Part shown: positions 6,659-35,812 of the stretch, piece by piece
How the letters are laid out: every line of letters begins with the position of its first letter
How positions within the stretch are numbered: position 1 is the first letter of the stretch
Virus record (IMG/VR): IMGVR_UViG_3300018422_000001
Coordinates: 1-64,000 of that record
Reading direction: 5' to 3' (one strand)
Source of the DNA: a virus
DNA length: 64,000 nucleotides
Notes under the pieces: generated by a model
The model's database searches: none
What the model saw: only the letters and a program-made list of their open reading frames with translations
What the model was told of the DNA's origin: nothing
Made by a program: the position numbers and the translations under genes

Positions 6659-6953
6659 GAATGCTGTGACTCCGACCGAAGTAGTCGTCTCGAAAGAAGC
6701 GCAAAAGGATCTTCGAACGGTACCGAAGCAAGTGGCGCGAAAGTTCGAGCAGTGGCGTCTTGCGATTTTGGTCGATGGTCTCGAAGAGACGCGGAAGATC
6801 CCGGGGTACCACGATGAGCCGCTTGCGGGAGATCTCGCGGGAACACGCTCGGTCCGACTGAGCGGCGCCTATCGCGCTTACTACCGGATCGAGGACGGCG
6901 AGATTCGGCTTGTCAGAGTCACGGGCGTTGACAAACACCGGTATCGGAAGTGA
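6657..6953 (+). CDS. RelE/ParE-superfamily (HigB-like) toxin (start ATG 6657 or, more likely, GTG 6666)
   Basis: GYHDEPLAGDLAGTRSVRLSGAYRAYYRIEDGEIRLVRVTGVDKHRY matches the RelE/ParE C-terminal pattern. Toxin-first order with a downstream XRE HTH. Confidence 0.7.
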   Translation: MNAVTPTEVVVSKEAQKDLRTVPKQVARKFEQWRLAILVDGLEETRKIPGYHDEPLAGDLAGTRSVRLSGAYRAYYRIEDGEIRLVRVTGVDKHRYRK

Positions 6954-6960
6954 GGAACCC

Positions 6961-7407
6961 ATGACTGCGAAGAAGAAAGCAACGAAGGTCAGACCGGGCG
7001 ATCGCGAGGCTGGCGAGTTCATGGATGAACTTTTGGGAGGCCCGCTCACGTTCGGCGCAATGGTTCGCTCGACTCGGCTAACCGACAACTTCACTCTCGC
7101 AACATTCGCGAAGAAGCTCGGTGTGTCGCGACAGTTTGTGTGCGATGTCGAGCAGGGGCGTCGCAGCGTTTCGGCTGCTACCGCTGCAAAGTGGGCTTCG
7201 TTGCTCGGCTACTCAGAAGCCGTGTGGATCGGGCTCGCGTTGCAGGATGGCATTGACGCGTCTGGTCTCAAGTATCGAGTGCATGTGACACCTGGATTCG
7301 ACTTCAATCGCTCGACAGGGCGCGGCCCGAAGGGCTTGCGCAAGGCTCTCGAGATCATGAGAGCGTCGAAGCGAGGTCGACCGCGTCAGCTCGAGGCTAC
7401 GAAATGA
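6961..7407 (+). CDS. XRE-family HTH antitoxin (HigA-like)
   Basis: GAGGAA SD before ATG 6961. FTLATFAKKLGVSRQFVCDVEQGRRSVSAATAAKWASLLG is an XRE helix-turn-helix. Confidence 0.7.
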   Translation: MTAKKKATKVRPGDREAGEFMDELLGGPLTFGAMVRSTRLTDNFTLATFAKKLGVSRQFVCDVEQGRRSVSAATAAKWASLLGYSEAVWIGLALQDGIDASGLKYRVHVTPGFDFNRSTGRGPKGLRKALEIMRASKRGRPRQLEATK

Positions 7408-11604: not shown

Positions 11605-11846
11605 TCGACGTCAAACTCAGCGACGAAGACATTGAACGGATCGCTCAACGCGTGACCGATCTGCTCGCTCGAAAGCTACTGGGAAGACTGGCGAAATTCG
11701 CAGGCGGGCTAGTCGCCAATGATGCAGAGGGCGCCCCTATCGGGGACACCTCCCGTGTTGCCAAAGTCGAGCGGCGTGCCAATGTCCAGCCGACCGCGCA
11801 GGATTTTGCTGACGTTGCGGCGCGGCGAGCAAGAAGAGGTTGTTGA
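11601..11846 (+). CDS. small hypothetical protein (81 aa)
   Basis: GTGA-coupled start. ORF track. Confidence 0.45.
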   Translation: MIDVKLSDEDIERIAQRVTDLLARKLLGRLAKFAGGLVANDAEGAPIGDTSRVAKVERRANVQPTAQDFADVAARRARRGC

Positions 11847-11848
11847 CG

Positions 11849-13162
11849 ATGCCACGAAAACAAACGGGTTCAGTCGAGAAAAGAGGCGGTCGGTTTCGCG
11901 CACGACTTGGCCGAGAAGTGCTCGGCACATTCGATACAGAAGACGAAGCGGATCGGAAGATCATCGCGGCGCAAGTGATGAACAAGGGCGTTACGCCCGA
12001 CATGTTTTGCATCAAGGGCGAGAAGTACATGAAGAACGAAGAGCTGCTCGCGCGTACGCGTCGAGGCAACTCGAAGATGTGGCAGAAGGAGGTCTCGCTT
12101 TGGGCTCGGCACATTCGCACGAGCAAGATTTATCGAATGAACGTGAAGAGCATTCAACGCGAGCACGTTCAAGATCTGCTCGAGAAGGTCGCGCAAACAC
12201 GCGCCGTGCGAATCGAGCCGAAGGTTGGTGGTGGATTCGATATCGTCGAAACGGATCGATTCTGCGGTGAGCGCACGATCAAACGTGTTCGCAGTCGTCT
12301 GTCGCACTTCTTCGATCGATGCCGTGGCTTGAAGAGCAACCCAGCGCTGCGTTGTCCGATTCCCAACACGACACAGATCAAGATTCGTCACGACTCGGAT
12401 CAGAAGCCTCACTTGCATGCAGACGAGGTCGTTCGTTTGTTCGATCTGCTCGAGATGACAGACGAGCATCGTGCTGTGTACGCGTTCGGGATTTACGCCG
12501 GGCTTCGTATCGACGAGATCGTTGGTCTGCGATGGGAGAACATTCTTCGGCTCGACAGCGACGATCCCGAGCTTGCGATCCAGTTCAGCTACGACGCGCC
12601 GACCAAAACGCAAAGCTCGCAGAGAGGAATCCCGATGCTGCCGCAGCTCGTGAAAGAGCTTCGGGCGTATCGTGCCTCGTTGCCCTCTACGCCGATCGCT
12701 GGCGTTGTGTTCCCTGGCAAGGATGGCTCGGTGAGGTCGATCGGTTACTCGGCTCGTTGGGCTGACAAGCGGTACAGGAACGAAAACGGAGAGTGGCGAG
12801 TGCGGGTCGGTTACCGAACGCTCGCTGGCATTCGCAAGCACATCTTGTTTCGGCATGTCCGGCATACGTGCGCGACTCATTTGCTCAAGGGCACATTCAC
12901 GCACGGGCACGAATGGCCGATCGAGAAAGTCTCGCAGTTGCTCGGGCACGAAGACGTGTCGACGACGATCGAACACTACGCCTCGAGAGAGGTCGACCGA
13001 CTGCACTCGGAGGTCGCGAAGGGCAAGCGCAAAGCCGAGCGAGAGCAGAGGCGCGTAGCCTCGGCTCGGTTGCTCGAGGATGGCTCAGACGAGCCCCGCA
13101 AGCCGAGGTCGATCTCTGGCAAGAAACCGGGCCGGAAAAACCCCACGAAAAACCCCAGGTGA
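11849..13162 (+). CDS. int: tyrosine recombinase / phage integrase
   Basis: GLRIDEIVGLRWENI, HVRHTCATHLLKG and LLGHEDVSTTIEHYA (R, HxxR and Y motifs). GAGG 9 nt before ATG 11849. Confidence 0.9.
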   Translation: MPRKQTGSVEKRGGRFRARLGREVLGTFDTEDEADRKIIAAQVMNKGVTPDMFCIKGEKYMKNEELLARTRRGNSKMWQKEVSLWARHIRTSKIYRMNVKSIQREHVQDLLEKVAQTRAVRIEPKVGGGFDIVETDRFCGERTIKRVRSRLSHFFDRCRGLKSNPALRCPIPNTTQIKIRHDSDQKPHLHADEVVRLFDLLEMTDEHRAVYAFGIYAGLRIDEIVGLRWENILRLDSDDPELAIQFSYDAPTKTQSSQRGIPMLPQLVKELRAYRASLPSTPIAGVVFPGKDGSVRSIGYSARWADKRYRNENGEWRVRVGYRTLAGIRKHILFRHVRHTCATHLLKGTFTHGHEWPIEKVSQLLGHEDVSTTIEHYASREVDRLHSEVAKGKRKAEREQRRVASARLLEDGSDEPRKPRSISGKKPGRKNPTKNPR

Positions 13163-18471: not shown

Positions 18472-19407
18472 GTGAGCACCACGATGAAAACGCTTCGGTT
18501 CGGGATTGAGATTGAAACGGTCGGCGCGTCGCGCCCGACGATCGCTGCGGCGATTGCCACGGTACTCGGCGGCAACTACAACGGCGGCGAGACGGCGACC
18601 GACTCGCTCGGTCGCACATGGAAGGTTGTGCCCGATGGCAGCCTCGCAGGCGGATACGACCGTAGCGGCGAGATTGTCTCGCCGATCCTCACCTACGCCG
18701 ACCTCGACACGCTGCAGGCGATTGTGCGTGCAGTGCGTGCGGCGGGCGCGCGGGTCGATAGCTCATGCGGCATTCACGTACACATCGACAGCTCGACGTT
18801 TACGGCAAAGAGCGTCGTCAACCTCGTCAAGACAGTGCACAAGCAAGAGCGCTTGATCGAGCACGCCTTGCGCATCGCGCCGAGTCGACTCGAGCGCTAC
18901 TGCCGCCCGATCGATGCCGATTTCATGGCTCGCCTCGAGTCGACCACGGTTCGCACGATGGCCGATGTGTCGAATGCTTGGTACGGCTACAGCAACTCTT
19001 CGCCGAACCGCTACGACAGCTCGCGTTACCATGGCCTCAACCTCAACTCTCACTTTTTTCGCGGAACCGTTGAGTTTCGCTACTTCTCGGGCTCGTTGCA
19101 TGCTGGCGAGGTCAAGGCGTATGTGCAGTTTGCGCTCGCACTCGCGGCCCGCTCGCTCACGATGAAGGCTGCTTCGAGCAAGCGCCGCGAATTCAACGTC
19201 GATACCGCGAAATACGACTTTCGCGTACTCATGATCAAGCTCGGCCTGATCGGCGACGAGTTCAAAACGTGCCGCCTCCATCTCTCGAAGCATCTCGAGG
19301 GTACGAGCGCGACGAAGCGAGCGGTCGTCGCGACGGCGGCGGTTGCCGCAACGGAGACCGCTGCAGCCGTCGAGACGGCCGACAACGGGGCAGCCGATGG
19401 CGAGTAA
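18472..19407 (+). CDS. amidoligase-family enzyme (Amidoligase_2 / glutamine-synthetase-like COOH-NH2 ligase)
   Basis: [28 protein letters not shown] and [11 protein letters not shown] motifs typical of the putative amidoligase family. Confidence 0.75.
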
Positions 19408-20541: not shown

Positions 20542-21027
20542 GTGCGGCGGCGAAACACAGTCGATGATTTTTGGCGGAACGTCGATCGCTCAGGCGGGCC
20601 GGATGCTTGTTGGCCATGGAAGGGTGCGCCCGACTCCGATGGCTACGGGCGAATGATGGTCGATGGGAAGCAATACAAGGCGCATCGGTTCGCATACGGC
20701 GTGACAAATGGATTCGTGCCGCCGAGTGTTCTGATCCGTCACTCGTGCGACAACCCGCCGTGTTGCAACCCGGGTCACTTGTTGACAGGCTCGCCTGCAG
20801 ACAACATGCGAGATCGCGACGAGCGCGGACGGCATGTGTCTCGCCCCGGAGAGACTAACGGATCGTCCAAGTTGCTCGATGCGCAAGCCGCAGAAATACG
20901 CGCGCGGTTTTTGCGCGGCGAGTCGGCTGCCTCAATCGCGAGAGACTTCCCGCAAGTCACCTACTGTCAGACGAATCGAATCGCGCGCCGCTACAGCAGA
21001 ACGAAGGACAATCAGCGTGGCCAGTAA
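20542..21027 (+). CDS. HNH homing-type endonuclease
   Basis: FWRNVDRSGGPDACWPWKG...YGRMMVDGKQYKAHRFAY...IRHSCDNPPCCNPGHL. GTG 20542 chosen as the first start after the upstream stop. Confidence 0.7.
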   Translation: MRRRNTVDDFWRNVDRSGGPDACWPWKGAPDSDGYGRMMVDGKQYKAHRFAYGVTNGFVPPSVLIRHSCDNPPCCNPGHLLTGSPADNMRDRDERGRHVSRPGETNGSSKLLDAQAAEIRARFLRGESAASIARDFPQVTYCQTNRIARRYSRTKDNQRGQ

Positions 21028-21913
21028 ACAGTTTCGACCGATGCTTGCAGCAACTTTGGAGTCTGTGACTCAGCTGCGATTTCCAGTGCTCGCCTCGCCA
21101 AAACTGGACGGAATTCGTACCGTGATTCGCGACGGCAAGGCTCTGAGCCGGAGCCTCAAGCCGATCCCGAACGAAGCGGTCCGCAAGTTTCTCGAGGGCC
21201 GCCCGGAACTCGAGGGTCTCGACGGTGAGTTGATGGTGCATGGCGCAACGTTTCAAGCGACGACGAGTGCGTTTATGAGCCGCTCGGGCGCGTTGCCTGC
21301 AGGCTGGTATTTCGGCGTGTTCGATGCTCTGCCGATCGTCGAGCGTGAGCCGTACACGCAACGGTTGATCCGCGCGACCGCCGCCGTCGCGAAAGCCGGG
21401 CCTCACATCGTGCTTGTCGAGCAGACCGAGGTTTGCAGCGCGGATCAGCTCGACACCTACGAAGCGAAAGCGCTAGAGCTTGGCTTCGAGGGCGTCATGA
21501 TTCGTCGCGCTGCAGCCTTCTACAAGCACGGGCGCTCGACCGCGACCGACGGCGCCTTGCTCAAGCTCAAGCGCTTTGCCGACGGCGAAGCGACCGTGAT
21601 TGGCTTCGCGGAGCGCATGCACAACGGCAACATTGCGACGACGAGCGCGACCGGTCGCACGCAACGATCGTCTGCGAAAGCAGGCAAGTCGCAGACGGGC
21701 AGTCTCGGCGCGTTGCTCGTGCGTGAGTGCAAGACCGGGATCGAGTTTGAGGTCGGCACGGGTTTCACCGAGGCGCAGCGACAGACGTTCTGGCGTACGC
21801 AAGCCGAGTTGCTCGGTCGCACGATCAAGTACAAGCACTTCGTGATCGGCGCGATGGTCAAGCCGCGGTTCCCGACCTTCATCGGGTTTCGCGCCGCAGA
21901 GGACATGAGCTGA
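21017..21913 (+). CDS. ATP-dependent DNA ligase
   Basis: Nucleotidyl-transferase motif I SPKLDGIRTV. GFEGVMIRR and LLKLK motifs. Start GTG 21017 (or ATG 21041) overlaps the HNH end. Confidence 0.75.
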   Translation: MASKQFRPMLAATLESVTQLRFPVLASPKLDGIRTVIRDGKALSRSLKPIPNEAVRKFLEGRPELEGLDGELMVHGATFQATTSAFMSRSGALPAGWYFGVFDALPIVEREPYTQRLIRATAAVAKAGPHIVLVEQTEVCSADQLDTYEAKALELGFEGVMIRRAAAFYKHGRSTATDGALLKLKRFADGEATVIGFAERMHNGNIATTSATGRTQRSSAKAGKSQTGSLGALLVRECKTGIEFEVGTGFTEAQRQTFWRTQAELLGRTIKYKHFVIGAMVKPRFPTFIGFRAAEDMS

Positions 21914-26929: not shown

Positions 26930-27244
26930 GTGCTCTGCACTCGGTGCCACAAGCAAGCCGCTGTCGAGGGGACACGGCGCTGCGAGTCGTGCCGAACGTA
27001 CATGAACGAGCGGCAACGCGAGCAACGCATCCGACGCGAGCGCGAGTCTCGATGCCTCTGCGGGCGATCGTGCGGCGACTATCGGATACGGTGCGACGCA
27101 TGTCTCGACGAAGAGCAGAGCGCTCGCGACGAGCTGCAGGCCCGACGCGAGCGCGAGCACTCGTGCATCTTGTGCGGCAAGCGTAGCCCTGCAGCGGGCC
27201 TCAAGACGTGCCGAGCCTGCATCGACCGGCTACTACGGCGTTGA
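26930..27244 (+). CDS. multi-CxxC zinc-finger protein (104 aa)
   Basis: CTRCH, CESCR, CDAC, CILCG and CRAC pairs. Confidence 0.5.
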   Translation: MLCTRCHKQAAVEGTRRCESCRTYMNERQREQRIRRERESRCLCGRSCGDYRIRCDACLDEEQSARDELQARREREHSCILCGKRSPAAGLKTCRACIDRLLRR

Positions 27245-28444
27245 GACGGCTGCGGGCCGCACACGAGGTCGAGGGCCGCTCGTACGCTTCGCTTTGCCGC
27301 CCGTCAGACGCTCCCATCGCTCAACGATGACGTCGCAGTATTCGGGCGACAGCTCGATCGCGGTGCAGGAGCGTCCAAGCTGTTCCGCTGCGATGAGAGT
27401 CGAGCCCGAGCCTGCGAACGGATCGAAAACTGTTCCCTCGCTGAATCCCAAGCACCAAGCCATCAGAGCAACGGGCTTCTGCGTGGGGTGCTGCCGCTTC
27501 TCGGATTCACCCGCGCGAATCATGCCGTTCCAGAGCTGCCGATGAATGCGCGCGGGCCCGGGCCGATTCGACCACGCAAGCTCTGCATCTGCGAAGTTGT
27601 TTTTGATCTCGGTGTCGGCTCGCTTGTCCCAAATCAACCAGCCGCCCGCGGGCGGCAGCTGATCCGCGAAGTAGTTGCCGCCCCAAATCGTGACGACGTC
27701 ACCGAGCGCGATGAGCCAGCGAACCTCTGGCGTTTTGCCATCGCCCGCGATCGGCGTGTACTTGCCCTTCTTCGCTTTGTGCCATGGCCCGTCGATGCAA
27801 CCGACGACTCCCTTTTGCACGACAGAGATACCGTAGGGCGGATCGGCCAACACGGCGCCGAATCGATCGGGTTGCTTCACTGTCAGGGCGTCGGCGCAGA
27901 TCAGCCGATGCTTGCCGAGCGTCCAAATGTCACCGAGCTTGCTGACTGGCTTGCCCTTCGGCAGCTCGGGAACCTCGTCTTCGGTGATCTCGCTGCGACT
28001 GGCGCGATCGGCATCCGCGATCAGCTTCTCGACCTCGGCAGCCGACCAACCGGTGCCGGGTAGATCGTCCGTATGCTTCGACATCAGCGCCGCGAGTTCG
28101 GCATCGTTCCAGCCGCCCTTGATCACGAGCTGATTCGAGGTGACTAGGTACGCCTCGGCTTCGTGCTCGTTGCGGAAGTTCACGCCTCGCACGACGGGAA
28201 CACACCACGTGCCGTCGGCAGAGACCTCGATGCGATCGGGCGGCGCCTGCCCCGCGGCTTTCTTCGCAAGCAACTTCTCGAGGCGACCATGCCCCGCAAC
28301 GATGCGCTGCGTGCCTTCGTCGAAGCAGATCGGCTCGACGTAGCCGAACCGGTCGAGCGACTCACCGAGCCCGTCGAGGTCGTGCTCTTTCGGGTTGCCG
28401 GGCCATGTCGCCAGCTCTTCGAGGGGCACCCATTCGAGGCGCAT
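27233..28444 (-). CDS. ParB-like nuclease domain fused to N6-adenine/N4-cytosine DNA methyltransferase
   Basis: N-terminal IVAGHGRLEKL (ParB-N-like). LADPPYGISVV (motif IV) precedes FDPFAGSGSTLIAAEQLGR (motif I), the beta-class order. Start ATG 28444 (MRLEWVPLEEL). Confidence 0.8.
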   Translation of the reverse strand: MRLEWVPLEELATWPGNPKEHDLDGLGESLDRFGYVEPICFDEGTQRIVAGHGRLEKLLAKKAAGQAPPDRIEVSADGTWCVPVVRGVNFRNEHEAEAYLVTSNQLVIKGGWNDAELAALMSKHTDDLPGTGWSAAEVEKLIADADRASRSEITEDEVPELPKGKPVSKLGDIWTLGKHRLICADALTVKQPDRFGAVLADPPYGISVVQKGVVGCIDGPWHKAKKGKYTPIAGDGKTPEVRWLIALGDVVTIWGGNYFADQLPPAGGWLIWDKRADTEIKNNFADAELAWSNRPGPARIHRQLWNGMIRAGESEKRQHPTQKPVALMAWCLGFSEGTVFDPFAGSGSTLIAAEQLGRSCTAIELSPEYCDVIVERWERLTGGKAKRTSGPRPRVRPAAVSTP

Positions 28445-28450
28445 TTTGCT

Positions 28451-28470
28451 TTGTGGCCCCGGGGCCACAC
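28451..28470. repeat. 18-bp palindrome family copy d (TTGTGGCCCCGGGGCCACAC)
   Basis: 7 nt upstream of the methyltransferase start. Confidence 0.8.
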
Positions 28471-28488
28471 GGGTGTTCCGACGTTGAG

Positions 28489-28899
28489 TCAAAGGCCAAC
28501 AACCCTTCCGCTGTTCCAATCGGCATGAAAGCCGGGCGTGCAGCCGAGCCGGGGATCTTGCTCTGCCCAATCGCGCCCGAGTGTCCGATACATCACCGGG
28601 ATGTCGTGATCACACGCAAGGCCGACTGCGATGAGCATGCCGTCGCTGATGCCGAGGTCGGTGTAGACGATCACGGATTCAGCGAGTAGCAGCCACGCGC
28701 AATGCCCCGCGATGCCTTGCGCGCGATCGACGTCGCGCGTGTCGTCGAGGACTCTCGGATAGAGCAGATGGCCCAAGAATGGCGCCTCGCCTCGACGAAG
28801 CGAGTCGAGCATGCAGGCGTCTGCGTATTGGAGGTTGAGCTTGAGATCGCCTCTGAAGGGCGACTCGATGCAGACGGGCTTCGCGGTCGGTAGGATCAT
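28489..28899 (-). CDS. hypothetical protein, possibly nucleoside 2-deoxyribosyltransferase-like fold
   Basis: ORF track. VCIESPFRGD...GEAPFLGHLLYP...VIVYTDLGISDGM pattern. Weak recollection only. Confidence 0.3.
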   Translation of the reverse strand: MILPTAKPVCIESPFRGDLKLNLQYADACMLDSLRRGEAPFLGHLLYPRVLDDTRDVDRAQGIAGHCAWLLLAESVIVYTDLGISDGMLIAVGLACDHDIPVMYRTLGRDWAEQDPRLGCTPGFHADWNSGRVVGL

Positions 28900-29273: not shown

Positions 29274-31274
29274 ATGGCCCCTCGAGACGGCGAGATCAGC
29301 GCGGAGCAGCGCATCGAGAGTGTTGCCGGTACGCGCAACACGGTGGTCAAGGCGTACGAGATCGGGCGCGACTACGCCGGGCTCGAGAAGGCCGAGCAAC
29401 AGAGCGAGGCATCCGACGACACGATCATGAGCATCTCGACGGCGTTCGCTCGAGACCAGATCGAGCCGCCGTACAGCCCCGATCACCTCTGCAAGTTGTT
29501 CGAGCACTCGGCATCACTACGGCAGAACGTCGACGCGTACATGACGAACATCGACGGGTTTGGACACACGTTCGACCCGGTGATCCAACTCAAAGAAGCC
29601 GCGGGCCGCGACATGGTGCGCGACGCGATCTTCATCGAGCGATACGAGGCCGCGCACAACCCACCGGCTCGGAAACCGGGCGAGCCCGTGCAGCCGGCTC
29701 CGGAAGTACTGATGCCGACCGATGCCGACATCGAGGCTCGGATCGATCAACTGCGAGCACAGATGCGAATGGAGCGCGCGCGAGTCGAGAGCTTCTTCTC
29801 GTACTGCGTCGCAGAAGAGAGTTTCACGAGCCTCCGGCGCCGCACTCGCCAAGACATCGAGGTCACCGGGAACGGCTATTGGGAAGTGATCCGCAACGGC
29901 GTCGGCGAGATCTCGCAGTTCGTTTACATCCCGTCGCGGTCGATGCGCGTGACCTCGAAAAAGCCGCACTCGGTCGAGGTGCCGCAGCTCGTGCGATTCG
30001 GTTCGCTTGCTCATCGCAAAGAAACGTTTCGCCGCAAGTTTCGCCGCTACCTGCAGACGGGCGGTGATCATCCGATCTGGTTCAAAGAGTTCGGCGACCC
30101 TCAAATACTCAGCTCGAGGACGGGCAAGTCATACGACACGCTCGAGCTTCTGCAGGCTACAGAACACGGCGTCCCGGAAGCGACCGAGGTGTTCCACTTC
30201 AAGATTCACGCGCTCACGACGAGCGCATACGGCGTGCCGAGATGGATCGGGAACCTGCTCTCGGTGCTCGGCTCGCGAGCCGCCGAAGAAGTGAACCTCG
30301 CTTACTTCGACAACAAAGCGATCCCGCCGATGGCGATCCTCGTGAGCGGCGGGCGACTCGGCGAAGAGTCGGTCAAGCGCATCGAGGATTTCGTCGAGGT
30401 CCAGATCAAGGGCCGCAAAAACTTTCACAAGATCCTCGTGATCGAAGCGGAGACGACCGCGGGCGCGATCGGTCTCGGCAACGAGAACGCCGGGCACATG
30501 CGCGTCGAGATCAAGACGCTGACCGACGCGCAACTCAAGGACGGCCTGTTCCTCGCTTACGACAGCGCGAACATGGACAAGGTCGGTATGGGCTTCCGGC
30601 TGCCGCGGTTGCTGCGCGGCGACATTCGCGACTTCAATCGCGCGAGTGCCGAAGCCGCTCTCGACTTCGCTGAAAGCCAAGTGTTCGGGCCCGAGCGCAA
30701 CGACTTCGATTTCGCGATGAATCGCCACGTGCTCCCAGCGCTCGGGATCCACCACTGGCAATTCAAAAGCAACGGCCCGCGCCTCTCGGACTCGCAGAGT
30801 TGGGGCGACATGATCGTCAAGCTCACGGTCGCTGGCATCCTGACGCCAGAGGATGCGCGCGCGCTTACCGGGACGAAGGTTCTCTCGCAAGAGCTACCCC
30901 TCATCTCGGCCGACTGGATCCGTCAACCGTTGCCTCTGACGATCGCAGGTGTGCAGCTCGACACGTCGCTCGACAACAACATCCCGCTAGCCGCGGCAGA
31001 GGGCGCAGGCGGCGCTGGGTTGCCCGATACGACCACGGGACCGACGCCAGCACCGGGCCTCGTCTCGGCTGCCAAGGGGCGGTTGCTAGCGCGCGCCAAA
31101 GACCTGATCCGGTTGCGCGATGCGTTCCGCAAACAAGAGACCGCTCAGGCGGTGGCCACACACAAGAAGCTGCAGGCTGCGGCCGATGCTGAGACCGACG
31201 AAGACGAGATCGTCATACGCATGACGGCCGAAGAGCTGGCGACGAATTTCGGGATCACGCGCAAAGAGACATGA
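29274..31274 (+). CDS. portal protein
   Basis: 666 aa ORF directly upstream of and ATGA-coupled to a MuF-like gene. Size, position and acidic C-terminus are typical of portals. Confidence 0.75.
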   Translation: MAPRDGEISAEQRIESVAGTRNTVVKAYEIGRDYAGLEKAEQQSEASDDTIMSISTAFARDQIEPPYSPDHLCKLFEHSASLRQNVDAYMTNIDGFGHTFDPVIQLKEAAGRDMVRDAIFIERYEAAHNPPARKPGEPVQPAPEVLMPTDADIEARIDQLRAQMRMERARVESFFSYCVAEESFTSLRRRTRQDIEVTGNGYWEVIRNGVGEISQFVYIPSRSMRVTSKKPHSVEVPQLVRFGSLAHRKETFRRKFRRYLQTGGDHPIWFKEFGDPQILSSRTGKSYDTLELLQATEHGVPEATEVFHFKIHALTTSAYGVPRWIGNLLSVLGSRAAEEVNLAYFDNKAIPPMAILVSGGRLGEESVKRIEDFVEVQIKGRKNFHKILVIEAETTAGAIGLGNENAGHMRVEIKTLTDAQLKDGLFLAYDSANMDKVGMGFRLPRLLRGDIRDFNRASAEAALDFAESQVFGPERNDFDFAMNRHVLPALGIHHWQFKSNGPRLSDSQSWGDMIVKLTVAGILTPEDARALTGTKVLSQELPLISADWIRQPLPLTIAGVQLDTSLDNNIPLAAAEGAGGAGLPDTTTGPTPAPGLVSAAKGRLLARAKDLIRLRDAFRKQETAQAVATHKKLQAAADAETDEDEIVIRMTAEELATNFGITRKET

Positions 31275-33532
31275 ACATCTGGTCGCGCGGCGTGGCGGCA
31301 GCCGAGGATCTCGCGACCGAGCTGCTCGGCGTGAGCGTGCACAAGGCGGTCGACCCGCTCGACCCGGACGGCTTCGTCGTGATCGGCGATCGGGTCGCGG
31401 CTGCCCTACGCAAAGCGGTCCGGGGCGGGGAAGCCGACGTGGTTCGAGGCGCGCTCGATGCGCTCAACATCGATTGGAACAAGGCTTCTCCGAACGCTGT
31501 CGACAAGGCGATCGATGCCGCGAAAGCTTCGATCAAAGCGCACTACGAAAAGTTCGTGCTGCCGAAGGTCAACGACACGCTCGAGTTGCAGGGCCCGATC
31601 CTGATGAAGGGCGTCAAGAGGGCCGTGATCGCCCGCGAGAAGATCGAGATCGCCCCGATGCTCTCGCTGCGCGACGAGGGCGCCGAGACCGCGATCCGAC
31701 GGCAGCACGTCAACTTCATTCGTGACAGCGCGGGCAAGCGGCTCGAGAGGATGAGTGAAGAAGCCCGCGGCATCGTCGCTCGAGGCTTTTCGGAGGGCCT
31801 CGGTCGCAACGTCATCGGGCGAGACCTCAAAGACCATTTCACCGACCGCATCGTGCGGCCCGACTCGTATTGGAACGTCGTCGCGAGCGCATACATCGGC
31901 CGAGCGCGATCGACGTCGCAGGTCTACGCGTACGAGGATGCAGGGATCCAGACGTTCGAGGTCGTCGCGGTGCTCGACGAGGTGACGACCGATCAGTGCC
32001 GTTTCATGGACGGGCAGGTGTTCACGATCCGATCGGCTCGACAGATCCTCGATGTGGTCGAAGACATCGAGGATCCCGAGGACGTCGTGCTCGCGAATCC
32101 GTGGATCCGAAAGGGTCGCGATCCGTCGGGCGGTATGCGGCTCTTCGTGCCGACGAAGGGCGGGGGAACAGAAACGCTGGCGAAGATCGATCGCAGCGGT
32201 CTCGGCAAGCTCGACGACAAGGGCTCGTTCTCGGGCGGCAAGAGTGCTGCCGGTCTGAGCAAGCTCGGTGTCTCGATGCCGCCCTATCACGGGCTCTGCC
32301 GCACGACGATCGTTGCTGGCGCAGAGATGTCGGAAGAGAAGCCGGTGCGCGCGCCGAGAGCGAAGCCTGCGCCGAAGCCCGAGCCGAAGCCCGAGCCGAA
32401 GCCCGAGCCGAAACCAGAGACACCGTTCAGCCCGCTCGAGGTTGAACCGATCCCATCGTATCCGACTCAGCTGCGTCTACCGATGAGACTAACGCCGCCT
32501 GCGAAGCCGGTGATTGTTCCGCCTGTCGTCGCAGAACCGAAACCGAAAAAGCCTCGAGCGCCTCGCAAGAAGCCTGCAGCCGACGCGCCGGTTGCTGCGA
32601 AGCCGGCTCCGGTGACAGCGTTGCCTGCTGAGTCAGCTTGGATGCAGGAGCCGACACTCGATGTCGTGTTCGATGACGACGCGCCTGGCGGTGGTGTGAA
32701 CGGCGCGCGGCTACTCTCGGTGAGAGACGCAAAAGCAACCGGATATGCGCATGCTCTACAAGGTGTTTGGAAGCCGATATCGACAGAGAGCTATGGTCTG
32801 CGCACGGGCATTGAGGCGGGCTCGTACTATCAACGCGAAGCTGCAATGTTCGAGTTGGATTCACTTCTTGAAGGCAAGCCCGTTGTGCCGCCCACCATCG
32901 TGCGAGAGCACAAGGGCGAAAAGGGCAGCTTTCAACAGTTCGTCAGTAACGCTACGTCTACAGTAAAGATCCGCGCCTCTGAGCTGCAACAGGCGAGCGA
33001 GCGTCATCTTCAGACAGAGCCCTCGTTGCGGCGATTGTTTCTGCTCGACGTGATCGCAGCGAACGACGATCGACACGTTGGCAACACGCTCTGGACCGGG
33101 AGAGGCAACAACATGAAAGCGGTCGCAATCGACAACGGGCTGACGTTCCCAAAGAGGCCGTGTCGATTCCTCTTTGCCGTGCCGGATCCGAAGGTCGCAG
33201 ATGCGCTAATGAAGTTCGACGCGACGAGTCTCGAGCAACTCAAGTCATTGAAGCTCGAGGACGTCGCGGCGATTCTGCACAAGCAACCCGACATTTTGGA
33301 AGAGCAGATCGCGGCAACTCTCGGCCGGATCAAGTCACTGCAGAACGATCACGCTCAATTCGAAAAGTTTATCCCGAAACCGGGCACGTACGGGGCTAAC
33401 AGAGTCGACGAACGCCAAACCGAAATTCATCGCTGGCTCGGCAAGCATACGACCGAGCGAGTCATGGACGGTGAGATCACCGAAGACGAGAAGCTCGAGA
33501 TCTACAAGCTCGCGAAACGGGCGATCGACTAG
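31271..33532 (+). CDS. MuF/SPP1 gp7-like head morphogenesis protein fused to a PI3K/PI4K-like (HipA-related) kinase domain
   Basis: MuF motif AVLDEVTTDQCRFMDGQVF. (KPEP)n and Pro-rich linker. C-terminal LFLLDVIAANDDRHVGN...AVAIDNGLTFP (DRHxxN catalytic loop and IDxG). Confidence 0.7.
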   Translation: MNIWSRGVAAAEDLATELLGVSVHKAVDPLDPDGFVVIGDRVAAALRKAVRGGEADVVRGALDALNIDWNKASPNAVDKAIDAAKASIKAHYEKFVLPKVNDTLELQGPILMKGVKRAVIAREKIEIAPMLSLRDEGAETAIRRQHVNFIRDSAGKRLERMSEEARGIVARGFSEGLGRNVIGRDLKDHFTDRIVRPDSYWNVVASAYIGRARSTSQVYAYEDAGIQTFEVVAVLDEVTTDQCRFMDGQVFTIRSARQILDVVEDIEDPEDVVLANPWIRKGRDPSGGMRLFVPTKGGGTETLAKIDRSGLGKLDDKGSFSGGKSAAGLSKLGVSMPPYHGLCRTTIVAGAEMSEEKPVRAPRAKPAPKPEPKPEPKPEPKPETPFSPLEVEPIPSYPTQLRLPMRLTPPAKPVIVPPVVAEPKPKKPRAPRKKPAADAPVAAKPAPVTALPAESAWMQEPTLDVVFDDDAPGGGVNGARLLSVRDAKATGYAHALQGVWKPISTESYGLRTGIEAGSYYQREAAMFELDSLLEGKPVVPPTIVREHKGEKGSFQQFVSNATSTVKIRASELQQASERHLQTEPSLRRLFLLDVIAANDDRHVGNTLWTGRGNNMKAVAIDNGLTFPKRPCRFLFAVPDPKVADALMKFDATSLEQLKSLKLEDVAAILHKQPDILEEQIAATLGRIKSLQNDHAQFEKFIPKPGTYGANRVDERQTEIHRWLGKHTTERVMDGEITEDEKLEIYKLAKRAID

Positions 33533-33783
33533 TCTTCGACGGTCTCGATGCGAAAGAACGTCCCGATCAGCTTGTCGAGGGCGTCGTAATACTTCTGCCC
33601 GTCTGTCGGTTTGAAGACACCGGCGCTCGTTGCCATCGTGCCGAGCATGCCGCTAAACATCAGCGCTTGATCGGGCTCGAGGTACTCGATCACGACCTTG
33701 TCTGCATCCTTGTCGAGAGTGAATGTGCAGATCGTCACCTCATCTTCGAGGTCGTCTGGCGAAGCGGCAACTAGGCGTTTCAT
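33529..33783 (-). CDS. small acidic protein (84 aa), convergent with the MuF-kinase gene
   Basis: ORF track. Box B-like motif 41 nt upstream of its ATG. Confidence 0.55.
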   Translation of the reverse strand: MKRLVAASPDDLEDEVTICTFTLDKDADKVVIEYLEPDQALMFSGMLGTMATSAGVFKPTDGQKYYDALDKLIGTFFRIETVED

Positions 33784-33823
33784 GGGCAGGGCCTTTCACA
33801 GGTTCTCAGGACAAGTGTGCTGC

Positions 33824-33840
33824 ATCCGGGACACTAACGC
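33824..33840 (-). promoter_or_regulatory. Box B motif copy 4 (ATCCGGGACACTAACGC)
   Basis: One mismatch to the other copies. Confidence 0.5.
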
Positions 33841-33933
33841 AATGCGAATCTCGAGTGTACACGCTGCGCTAATGTAGGCGAGGACTGCGGCGAGAAATCG
33901 ACAGCGAGTGCACGAGCCCGGTAGGGCTTTCGT

Positions 33934-34233
33934 ATGCCCGGTGAACTGATCGAGTTGTTCGTCGACAAGTCGCTCGCTCGTCGAGTGCTGACGAAGGTCC
34001 AAGACGTGATCATGACCTCGTTCGTCGACGATCGCTCTCGCATCACTCGAGCCGAGACCGTTCGTCGATTCAAGATCGTCGAGACCCTGTTCCGCGAGTT
34101 GCGGGCAGAGGGTTGGCCGCATCAGCGCATCCTCGATGTGATGCCGGAAGCGTTGCGACACAAGCTCGACGGCACGCCTTGGGAGCCAGACTTCACTCGC
34201 AACGTCTGGCAACCGAGCGGCAATCGCGGGTGA
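33934..34233 (+). CDS. hypothetical protein (99 aa)
   Basis: ORF track. Confidence 0.5.
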   Translation: MPGELIELFVDKSLARRVLTKVQDVIMTSFVDDRSRITRAETVRRFKIVETLFRELRAEGWPHQRILDVMPEALRHKLDGTPWEPDFTRNVWQPSGNRG

Positions 34234-34304: not shown

Positions 34305-35066
34305 ATGCCGACCTTCGCAGAGCAGATCGCCGCTACGAATGCCAAACTCGACGCACTGATTGCCGGGCCGCCGCCGCCCGCGCCGCCCGCGCCCGAAGAG
34401 TTGAAACTCACCCCTGCAGAGGCACTCGCGACGATCACGGCAGAGTTGAGCAAGAGCGACACGACTCCAGATCGCGCGACCTACCTCAAGTCAGTGCTCG
34501 CGGAGATCGCGAAGTCTCATTGGGAAGCGACCTCGTTCATTCAGCTCAAAGTGTTGCACGATCCGCTGTTGCAGGTCGCGACGACGACGGTTACCCCGGT
34601 TGCGAATGCGAGCACGGGCCCGGCTGCAACCGGCTTCTCGAGCAACGAGCCGTTGACCGGTATGGCCAAGGCTCAAGAGATGCAGAAGCTGATCGTCGAC
34701 CGCGATGCGCTCAAAAAGGCGATCGCGAAGTCGCGGCTCACCGACAAGATGGCCGAGATCAAGACCGTCTTTCAGATCGCGGACACTGAGTTGGAGACCG
34801 AGTACGACCTGCGATGGAAGATCGGCGACATCGTCGACATGTTGCAGAAGGCGATCAAGCTCGAGCAGTTCGTCGGTGACCCGATGCTCGCGCCGGTCGC
34901 GGCGCCGTATGCGCCTCCGGGCACGACGCCCCCGACACCGACGAGTTTCACTGCAAACGACAAGTCGCCATGGCCCGCCGACATGGCGAAAGCCAAGTTC
35001 GACGACAAGGAAGGTCTCTTCAAGGCGGACCTTCCTTCGTGGGGTCGCGACGGCGAGAAAGCCTAG
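34305..35066 (+). CDS. hypothetical head-module protein (Pro-rich, coiled)
   Basis: GGGAG before ATG 34305. Lies between MuF and the protease. Confidence 0.5.
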   Translation: MPTFAEQIAATNAKLDALIAGPPPPAPPAPEELKLTPAEALATITAELSKSDTTPDRATYLKSVLAEIAKSHWEATSFIQLKVLHDPLLQVATTTVTPVANASTGPAATGFSSNEPLTGMAKAQEMQKLIVDRDALKKAIAKSRLTDKMAEIKTVFQIADTELETEYDLRWKIGDIVDMLQKAIKLEQFVGDPMLAPVAAPYAPPGTTPPTPTSFTANDKSPWPADMAKAKFDDKEGLFKADLPSWGRDGEKA

Positions 35067-35812
35067 TGCCAGAGGCAACGTTCAAGTCGGCGATCGCGGG
35101 TGCTCTCGCTCTGATTCCAGAGGGCCCCGATACGGTCGTAATCGACGGCGGCGACGAAGCCGGCGACGTCACGACGCTGATCGCGACGGCACAGCAGTCC
35201 GGCTCATCGTGGGTCGTCGAGATCCCGCAAGTGGGCTCGATGCTCGAGGCGCTGTCGAAGCAAGAGAACCTCTCGGTGTTCTACATCGAGGCGTTGCCGG
35301 GCAGTCTCTTCGTGACGTGTGAGCCGCTCGCGGCGGGCCGCAGTAGCGTGATCATGAGCAAGGGCGTGATCGGCTACACCGCGCCCGAGCCGCCGCCCGA
35401 GATCAAGCCGGGGCACGAGCCAACGCACAAGCGGATCACCAAGTTGCTCAAGACTGCAGAGGAACGCTACGTGCTCGGTGTCGTGCTTGTGCCCGAGCAC
35501 AAGGACTCGCAAGGCGACATCTACTCGCACGACGAAGTTCGCAACGCGGCACACGTGTACATGGAGAAGGCTCAGGCACTCGGCAAGCAACACGGCGAGA
35601 TCGTCACGGGTAAGCTCAAGATCCTCGAGAGCTACGTTGCACCGGTCGACTTCGTGCTCGAGGCAGAGACCATCACGAAGGGGACATGGATTCTCGGTAT
35701 CCGAGTGGTCGATGACGACCTCTGGACCGAGGTCAAAAAGGGGAGCTTCACTGGCTTCTCAATCGGCGGCGAGGCGTACCGCACACCCGAGACGCCCGCG
35801 GCGCGCGGGTAG
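35066..35812 (+). CDS. XkdF-type prohead serine protease-like protein
   Basis: ERYVLGVVLVPEHKDSQGDIYSHDEVRNAAHVYMEK ... GFSIGG. GTG 35066 overlaps the upstream TAG. Confidence 0.65.
   Translation: MPEATFKSAIAGALALIPEGPDTVVIDGGDEAGDVTTLIATAQQSGSSWVVEIPQVGSMLEALSKQENLSVFYIEALPGSLFVTCEPLAAGRSSVIMSKGVIGYTAPEPPPEIKPGHEPTHKRITKLLKTAEERYVLGVVLVPEHKDSQGDIYSHDEVRNAAHVYMEKAQALGKQHGEIVTGKLKILESYVAPVDFVLEAETITKGTWILGIRVVDDDLWTEVKKGSFTGFSIGGEAYRTPETPAARG

Follow-up and report, generated by a model that had tools for sequence, protein, structure and literature searches.

A MuF minor head protein with a type II PI4-kinase-like domain and a linked small gene as a candidate exchangeable effector cassette in a contractile-tailed phage

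INTRODUCTION

MuF/gp7-type proteins are associated with the portal, are present in a few copies inside the capsid, and exit with the DNA; MuF fusions are the main candidate route for tailed phages to deliver enzymes along with their DNA. The MuF cargos studied so far are few and comprise ADP-ribosyltransferases, (p)ppApp synthetases, and nucleases. Here we describe a phage locus in which a MuF domain is joined through a linker to a domain of the PI3/PI4-kinase superfamily and is accompanied by a small partner gene. The locus lies in a 64,000-nucleotide (nt) stretch of DNA, IMG/VR virus record IMGVR_UViG_3300018422_000001, positions 1 to 64,000 (hereafter, the window), and was singled out in a first-pass annotation made from the DNA letters alone. 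While the MuF concept is established, the kinase cargo class and the partner family appear to be new. If this reading is true, the MuF repertoire would gain, through an intact PI3/4K-type kinase, the phosphorylation of proteins or lipids from the very moment of infection.

Among described systems, the MuF polymorphic toxins of temperate phages (Jamet et al. 2017, PMC5576092; Apk2/IapK/Aph1, PMC12226406) share with the window locus a MuF gene beside the portal gene, variable C-terminal domains, a small cognate open reading frame (ORF), cassette exchange, and an integrase. In one such system, MuF-Apk2 is followed by IapK, an immunity protein that neutralizes Apk2 by occluding its active site (PMC12226406). 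The window locus differs from these toxins in that (i) its cargo is a PI3/PI4-kinase-superfamily domain; (ii) its partner family is unannotated and the partner gene is inverted in the window phage; (iii) its close relatives come from metagenomic viral contigs and not from prophages of sequenced genomes; and (iv) its MuF clade is divergent, falling below the threshold for PF04233. The word "kinase" is absent from the main text and the accessible supplements of the MuF toxin survey (PMC5576092), the terms PI3, HipA, and "protein kinase" do not occur in Zhang 2012, and a literature search for PI3/4K-type kinases on MuF or virion proteins returned nothing relevant.

With regard to the kinase domain itself, the closest relative by sequence and structure is the type II phosphatidylinositol 4-kinase (PI4K; PI4K2A/2B, PDB 4hnd and 4wtv), although the hallmarks of type II enzymes are not present. 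Common to both are the G-loop, the catalytic, ATP-binding Lys within xWKP/xFKP, the alphaC Glu, the D-R-x-x-x-N pattern, and the Mg-binding segment IDNGLxFP. The window kinase is nonetheless only 22% identical, superposes with a template modeling (TM) score of 0.47, has DRHxGN (DRHVGN in the window) in place of the DRGNDN loop, is without the large insertions (visible as long gaps on the target side of the profile alignment), has a distinct helical C-terminal region, and has no Cys-rich palmitoylation motif, with the sole Cys of the domain located in RPCRF. Type II PI4Ks are eukaryotic, whereas the window kinase is encoded by a prokaryotic virus. The SCO1664 family (TIGR03843) belongs to the same kinase clade, with P0003 and P0004 aligning throughout. 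The C-terminal domain matched this profile at E 8e-11 and 41.8 bits (profile positions 31-235 of 253), far under the equivalog cut-off of 172.4, and is thus related to the family but not a member; SCO1664 proteins are also small and stand-alone, have DRKGGH where the window clade has DRHxGN, and carry no MuF domain.

HipA/HipB share with the window locus the broad fold superfamily, a kinase with a small partner, and a toxin-like logic. They are set apart by the absence of a HipA_N or HipA_C match in the window protein, by a partner that has no family and is not upstream, and by fusion of the window kinase to a virion protein. Zeta-type kinases have an unrelated P-loop fold. Polyvalent and virion effectors (PMC5512222) include a MuF-zeta-toxin-like kinase fusion, a truncated clade of Ser/Thr/Tyr-type kinases, T4 Alt, and the T7 kinase; they have in common with the window locus the use of enzymes that act on host targets at the onset of infection, a MuF carrier, and kinases among the effectors. 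The polyvalent-protein kinase clade is described as closer to protein kinases, as having lost the C-terminal subdomain, and as found chiefly in elements of Verrucomicrobia, Chlamydia, and Bacteroidetes (PMC5512222). The window kinase family may overlap with this clade; distant genome matches include metagenome-assembled genomes (MAGs) of Chlamydiae.

RESULTS AND DISCUSSION

The MuF fusion's C-terminal domain resembles type II PI4K

The gene in question was found to be a single unbroken ORF with an ATG start, encoding a protein of 753 amino acids (aa) laid out as a MuF domain (aa 1-365), a linker (aa 366 to about 470), and a kinase domain (about aa 470-753); the coordinates of these and other features are collected in Table 1. 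The 753-aa product was also present in a separate ENA gene call from another assembly of the same phage. All motifs quoted in the first-pass annotation were located in this one frame, in agreement with its description of the gene as a MuF-linker-kinase fusion.

Profile searches assigned the C-terminal domain to the PI3/PI4-kinase superfamily. Pfam PI3_PI4_kinase (PF00454) was matched by the whole protein at E 4e-5 (24.0 bits) and by the C-terminal domain alone at E 9e-6 (26.2 bits), relative to a gathering score of 27.1 that was exceeded by the close homologues P0001 (35.3 bits) and P0002 (41.7 bits). The DRHxxN loop and IDxG motif, which had been highlighted as characteristic of PI3/PI4-kinases, are therefore not chance matches. 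When PDB sequences were searched by single-sequence phmmer nothing useful was returned, and the family profile alone succeeded: PI4K type II alpha and beta were detected at E 2e-13, followed by Fam20 kinases, with Fam20B in the second tier. The profile alignment to PI4K2A/2B spanned the G-loop, the Lys, the Glu, the catalytic loop, and IDNGLxFP. An AlphaFold 2 (AF2) model of the domain, built on a 22-sequence alignment, had a predicted local distance difference test (pLDDT) score of 90.9 and a predicted TM-score (pTM) of 0.91. Searching the PDB with this model by Foldseek returned PI4KIIalpha first (E 8.8e-9, probability 1.0, TM 0.47) and then PI4KIIbeta, while the lower matches (PI4KIIIbeta, CtkA, DAPK, mTOR, and ATR) were kinases only, PI4KIIIbeta, mTOR, and ATR also having probability 1.0. 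The profile and structure searches that had been suggested as a check on the kinase assignment thus came out in its favor, and the model supports a bilobal kinase fold for the C-terminal domain.

Conservation of the predicted active site was examined in 72 diverse long homologues. The catalytic set of K501, E523, D600-R601-H602, N605, and D621 was invariant in this alignment, of which the mean column identity was about 9% and in which the only other invariant columns were P600 and D653 (P0005 numbering). The catalytic columns correspond to Lys in VWKP, Glu in REAA, D-R-H plus N in the catalytic loop, and Asp in IDNG. Domain alignments of 22 and 24 sequences likewise retained this set, the one exception being two SCO1664 sequences of the outgroup, which depart from it at the H and the N. 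Loss of the catalytic residues in orthologues, named in the first-pass annotation as an outcome that would speak against a kinase, was not what was found. Overall, the C-terminal domain is most likely an atypical kinase that looks catalytically competent and belongs to a prokaryotic/phage clade that lies nearest to type II PI4K and to SCO1664 proteins.

The N-terminal domain is MuF-like and is joined to the kinase by a repeat-containing linker

The N-terminal domain matched NCBIfam TIGR01641 (phage SPP1 gp7 domain) at E 2.5e-9 and 37.5 bits (cut-off, 39.65) and, weakly, Pfam Phage_Mu_F (PF04233) at E 0.012 and 16.8 bits (cut-off, 29.6). PHROG families were more informative, with phrog_13868 covering aa 8-349 of the domain end to end (E 1e-56) and "minor head protein" families (phrog_115 and others) matching at E 7e-9 to 3e-7. 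Homologues that carry the kinase domain reached Phage_Mu_F at E 3e-19, and the stop of the portal gene and the start of the MuF-kinase gene share 4 nt. The MuF identity, proposed earlier from an SPP1 gp7 signature, is thereby supported by portal adjacency, by the TIGR01641 and PHROG matches, and by the Phage_Mu_F scores of the homologues.

Between the two domains, the KPEP tract was detected by Tandem Repeats Finder as a 12-nt unit repeated 4.3 times (32361-32412, 95% matches), and the first 10 residues of the AF2 kinase model (aa 444-453) had a mean pLDDT of 66. The KPEP repeat and Pro-rich stretch of the linker were as first described; its end, placed before at about nt 32620, was found to lie slightly further downstream, at about nt 32680.

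The linker, kinase domain, and small gene are exchanged as a unit between related phages

By blastn, the viral contig L001 was collinear with the window at about 82-91% DNA identity (about 90% near the MuF gene) apart from two indels: (i) an insertion of about 1 kb in the L001 portal gene; and (ii) a replacement of 1480 bp of the window (32392-33871) by 1036 bp of L001 (9122-10157). The left breakpoint of the replaced segment is inside the KPEP repeat, with homology to L001 stopping at window position 32391. The GC content of the segment was 57.7% compared with 62.4 +/- 1.7% for the window, placing it in the lowest 1% of windows of the same size. The L001 protein was 96% identical across the MuF domain and then continued into an unrelated 230-aa C-terminal domain, with an unrelated 95-aa ORF at the partner position. 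This 230-aa domain and 95-aa ORF had no Pfam, PHROG, or PDB-sequence match, and the alternative L001 cassette may be another effector/partner pair. Motifs noted by eye had suggested an ADP-ribosyltransferase as the L001 cargo; this assignment was unconfirmed (Pfam DRAT E 0.14, no PHROG match, and no PDB match). In a second contig, L002, the MuF domain was 58% identical to that of the window and was followed by a homologous kinase domain.

The range of extensions on this MuF scaffold was surveyed in 80 viral loci retrieved by the MuF domain alone, several of which are near-duplicates. About 50 of the 80 encoded a stand-alone MuF protein of about 350 aa with no extension, while the others carried extensions of at least 17 unrelated clusters, including a DRAT-like ADP-ribosyltransferase and a HipA_C-like kinase. 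The latter was seen in L094 (3853-7503; also L096, L098, L100, and L110) as an extension of about 860-900 aa, the core of which matched HipA_C at 31.3 bits (cut-off, 30.5) and PI3_PI4_kinase weakly, making it a second, different cargo of the kinase type; these five loci yielded no detectable homologue of the small partner gene.

These comparisons suggest that the linker, the kinase domain, and the 84-aa gene form a mobile cassette that would be exchanged by recombination at the repeat-containing linker. A conserved anchoring N-terminal domain, a repeat-rich joint, swapped C-terminal domains, and a cognate small gene are the defining pattern of polymorphic toxins, to which the window gene appears to conform. 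The earlier framing of the fusion as a MuF polymorphic toxin is strengthened by this cassette swap between phages of about 90% identity and by the linked partner gene.

A small partner gene is linked to the kinase

An 82-aa ORF that overlaps the stop of the L002 kinase gene was 36% identical (E 2e-16) to the 84-aa protein encoded immediately 3' of the window kinase. The kinase alignment retrieved 29 viral loci, and in 22 of these a partner homologue was detected, on the same strand as the kinase and at -3 to +40 nt from its stop; one of the partner-less loci ends too early to tell. In the MuF-anchored set, the partner was present at all six kinase loci and at none of the 74 others (Fisher p 3e-9, with near-duplicate loci overstating independence). 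Three independent contigs found via the partner had the order of terminase, portal, a gene the size of a MuF-kinase (664-891 aa), partner, protease, and capsid. By comparison, a 72-aa ORF that follows the stand-alone kinase P0001 (L118) had no detectable homology to the partner.

The partner family was represented by 13 clusters in a database of 5.8 billion proteins, all of them unnamed or "hypothetical". An AF2 model of the window partner was alpha/beta and fairly confident (pLDDT 79). Two independent assemblies, ENA ERZ27251540 and Logan SRR7976076, reproduced the inverted orientation of the partner gene, and the gene in the window was not seen to be flanked by convincing inverted repeats. 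As speculation, the inversion could uncouple expression of the partner from that of the late operon, such as during lysogeny.

The kinase family is large and is repeatedly joined to capsid-internal carriers

When 1.84 billion cluster representatives were scanned exhaustively with HMMER, 1030 relatives of the kinase were identified at E<=1e-3, of which 20 reached E<=1e-30, a far wider return than the 4 relatives obtained with a word-indexed protein search. Most of the 1030 are 600-900 aa in length with the kinase domain at the C terminus. Among the 72 long homologues, 53 matched PI3_PI4_kinase and 33 matched Phage_Mu_F (E<1e-3), and a few also bear ADP-ribosyltransferase or PT-HINT domains. The kinase was also found behind portal domains (Portal_Mu in P0089 and Phage_portal_3 in P0118) and, in P0096, in combination with MuF and a large N-terminal region. 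On the basis of these domain matches, the kinase appears to be repeatedly joined to carriers that are internal to the capsid (MuF and portal). The nearest models in a viral structure library were tailed-virus proteins auto-labeled "PI3K/PI4K catalytic domain-containing", together with giant actinophage proteins labeled ADP-ribosyltransferase; an automatic kinase label is thus already attached to some database entries of the family.

Two further arrangements were observed. In two giant proteins from the exhaustive scan, P0034 (3184 aa) and P0071 (2892 aa), the kinase domain occurs four times in tandem, P0034 scoring 183.8 bits for PI3_PI4_kinase over four stretches and carrying DUF4347 in addition. 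Pairs of tandem kinase proteins were encoded by L029 (2976-5060 and 5374-6588) and L030 (4801-6753 and 7004-8887), and in L030 a partner homologue (6750-7001) sits between the two kinase genes.

Proposed function and alternative explanations

On balance, and with some reserve, we consider it probable that the locus encodes a MuF polymorphic effector with a PI4K-II-like kinase cargo and a cognate immunity-like partner. During late expression, the small protein would bind the kinase and keep it silent in the producer, and perhaps also in lysogens, for which the separately oriented partner gene of the window phage would provide a route to its own expression. Interaction of MuF with the portal would bring the MuF-kinase into proheads, and on infection the protein would enter the new cell with the DNA and free of its inhibitor, where the kinase could phosphorylate a host target and in this way blunt defense, reprogram the cell, or intoxicate cells that have no partner. 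The steps of packaging, ejection, and inhibition are inferred from known MuF/gp7 proteins and polymorphic toxins, and the enzymatic activity and host target are likewise presumed. More tentatively, and with less expectation that every part will hold, the family may represent a class of kinases, widespread and undescribed in the literature searched, that virions deliver, that stands closer to PI4KII than any other prokaryotic relative, is paired with an inhibitor of about 82 aa and new fold, and is injected to act before phage gene expression.

Several observations weigh against this proposal. The window protein scores just under the curated cut-offs for PF00454 and TIGR01641, and also under that of PF04233. 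A toxin that enters the very cell that the phage needs is paradoxical unless it serves takeover or counter-defense. The partner had no Pfam or PHROG family, and its model had no PDB neighbor by Foldseek (best E 0.44); it could instead be a chaperone, an activator, or a substrate, as the inhibitor role is drawn from context. Moreover, all 22 relatives have the partner gene in the opposite orientation to that seen in the window, where no promoter of sigma-70-like type was detected for it. The co-divergence of kinase and partner (Spearman 0.60) did not exceed that of kinase and MuF (0.77) and was thus uninformative. Close prophage relatives were absent from 185,579 representative genomes as searched with narrow patterns, and this lack weakens the ecology expected of a temperate-phage polymorphic toxin.

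The nature of the substrate is the point at which the strongest alternative enters. We favor a protein over a lipid or a small molecule because, to our knowledge, most bacteria lack phosphatidylinositol and because HipA, CtkA, and Fam20C, kinases of this same fold, act on proteins. A lipid or sugar substrate is nonetheless a serious rival, with PI4KII and Fam20B as the nearest relatives: the domain could be a true lipid or other non-protein kinase that modifies host phosphatidylinositol, a membrane lipid, or an envelope sugar and remodels the membrane at the entry site. Consistent with this alternative, the best neighbors by both sequence and structure are PI4KIIalpha and PI4KIIbeta, the similarity runs past IDNGL into the "GLxFP" segment, the sugar kinase (xylosylkinase) Fam20B is in the second tier, and the related SCO1664 family is actinobacterial, actinobacteria being organisms that make phosphatidylinositol. 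We consider it unlikely all the same, as the TM-score to PI4KII is low, the domain is shorter than the PI4KII catalytic-domain chains of about 340 residues, and neither the DRGNDN loop nor the palmitoylation motif is present. Less likely again is a function in the producer cell or prohead, in which the kinase would act in late phosphorylation, assembly, or packaging, the partner would be a regulator or substrate, and MuF would only localize the enzyme to the portal vertex. The usual translational coupling of the partner within the late head operon and the fusion of the kinase to MuF or portal proteins, which mark the packaging vertex, would fit such a function; an assembly role should, however, be conserved, yet the cassette is replaced in a phage of about 90% identity and about 50 of the 80 MuF relatives have no C-terminal domain. 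That the cassette can be dispensed with, and that unrelated domains take its place, is a pattern typical of accessory conflict effectors.

The first-pass annotation had also raised a HipA-like action on translation, and a prophage-encoded toxin-antitoxin or abortive-infection module, with a kinase of translation factors and an antitoxin serving maintenance or superinfection exclusion, can be envisaged as well. The fold superfamily is common with HipA, the sister cargo of L094 exceeds the HipA_C cut-off, and the window has both an integrase gene and a small adjacent partner that is independently oriented. This proposal did not hold up well and is in our view quite improbable: at E<=1 the window protein matched neither HipA_C nor HipA_N, type II PI4K and SCO1664 proteins are its nearest relatives, and the partner is not HipB-like, having no family or fold and lying downstream or convergent, while in hipBA the HipB gene is upstream. 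Fusion to a capsid-internal protein in dozens of lineages is, in addition, hard to explain without a role in the virion. A pseudokinase, or a purely structural extension without catalysis, can very nearly be dismissed. Nothing specific speaks for it beyond the window protein being slightly under the Pfam gathering score, and it is countered by the confident kinase-like model and by a full catalytic constellation that is invariant across 72 homologues as divergent as these.

If a MuF effector with a kinase cargo is indeed what the cassette encodes, the kinase and its inhibitor would constitute a new toxin-immunity family, comprising hundreds of sequence clusters, repeated MuF and portal fusion, and a strictly linked partner with no recognized fold. 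The pair is directly testable as a toxin/immunity or effector/inhibitor system, with K501, D600, and D621 as the key catalytic residues. The partner family could provide a new small kinase inhibitor, and the phage kinase clade may be relevant to how type II PI 4-kinases arose.

Phage context and other features of the window

The window phage is of the contractile-tailed type, with sheath, tape measure, and baseplate genes present. Genes 3' of the MuF-kinase encode a scaffold-like ORF, an XkdF-type S78 protease, and a major-capsid-type protein, an order that was kept in the relatives. The integrase suggests a temperate lifestyle. Close cultured relatives were not found: megablast and tblastn gave no match to the region or the protein in 50,697 GenBank phage records, and the sheath and portal proteins had matches of at most 33% identity, to phages of Bacillus, Rhizobium, and Streptomyces, too distant to point to a host. 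Close relatives were metagenomic viral contigs of about 45-110 kb, the longest contig listed for the partner protein (P0164) being about 110 kb. The genome scan yielded only six distant matches, all MAGs, from Parachlamydiales, Chlamydiae, the candidate phyla radiation (CPR), Izemoplasmatales, Chloroflexota, and Bacteriovoracia.

Table 1. Coordinates of the MuF-kinase locus and of other features discussed in the text (window positions unless L001 is indicated).
Feature	Position (nt)	Strand	Description
MuF-linker-kinase fusion gene	31271..33532	+	753 aa, one ORF
MuF / SPP1 gp7-type minor head domain	31271..32365	+	aa 1-365
LDEVTTDQCRFMDGQVF	31973-32023	+	aa 235-251, inside MuF domain
PPYHGLCR	32279-32302	+	inside MuF domain
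(KPEP)n tandem repeat	32361..32419	+	left breakpoint of exchangeable cassette
Pro/Ala/Lys-rich low-complexity linker	32366..32680	+	aa 366-~470, 29% Pro
APKPEPKPEPKPEPKPE	32369-32419	+	aa 367-383, in linker
PI3/PI4-kinase-superfamily domain	32600..33532	+	aa 444-753, closest to type II PI4K
G-loop GGGVNGA	32687-32707	+	kinase domain
K501	32771	+	kinase domain
R522/E523	32834-32839	+	kinase domain
D593	33047	+	kinase domain
D600-R601-H602	33068-33076	+	within DDRHVGN, aa 599-605, nt 33065-33085
N605	33083	+	kinase domain
IDNG with D621	33128-33139	+	within AVAIDNGLTFP, aa 617-627, nt 33119-33151
Partner gene, candidate immunity/inhibitor	33529..33783	-	84 aa; convergent with kinase gene, stop overlap 4 nt
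Exchangeable cassette (linker, kinase domain, partner gene)	32392..33871	.	blastn collinearity breaks versus L001
Alternative cassette of L001	9150-9842 and 9847-10134 (L001)		230-aa C-terminal domain and 95-aa downstream ORF
Backbone ORF, outside cassette	33934..34233	+	99 aa; conserved in relatives with and without kinase
Portal gene	29274..31274	+	666 aa; Pfam Phage_portal E 5e-15; phrog_12 E 8e-33; apparently intein-less allele
XkdF-type (S78) prohead protease	34970..35812	+	head module; Pfam Peptidase_S78_2 E 1e-29
Tyrosine integrase	11840..13162	+	phrog_1 integrase E 3e-39
Amidoligase	18472-19407		phrog_2443 E 2e-77; non-structural region
ATP-dependent DNA ligase	20834-21913		phrog_114 E 3e-63; non-structural region
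ParB-like nuclease domain and DNA methyltransferase fusion	27233-28570	-	445 aa; phrog_498 E 2e-71; ParB-like phrogs E 7e-23

The ParB-methyltransferase gene runs opposite to the head genes and is located shortly 5' of the portal gene. The portal genes of L001 (1012 aa) and L002 (982 aa) were found to be interrupted in frame by an extra stretch, about 340 aa long (CYSGDTETL...IQGN|SAEAALDF), that matched LAGLIDADG_3 at E 1e-5. The insertion occupies positions 6359-7375 of L001 and about 6353-7369 of L002, and its site corresponds to window position 30643/30645 (about aa 457 of the portal protein). From its sequence, this insertion looks like an intein with a homing endonuclease, of which the window phage would carry the empty allele.

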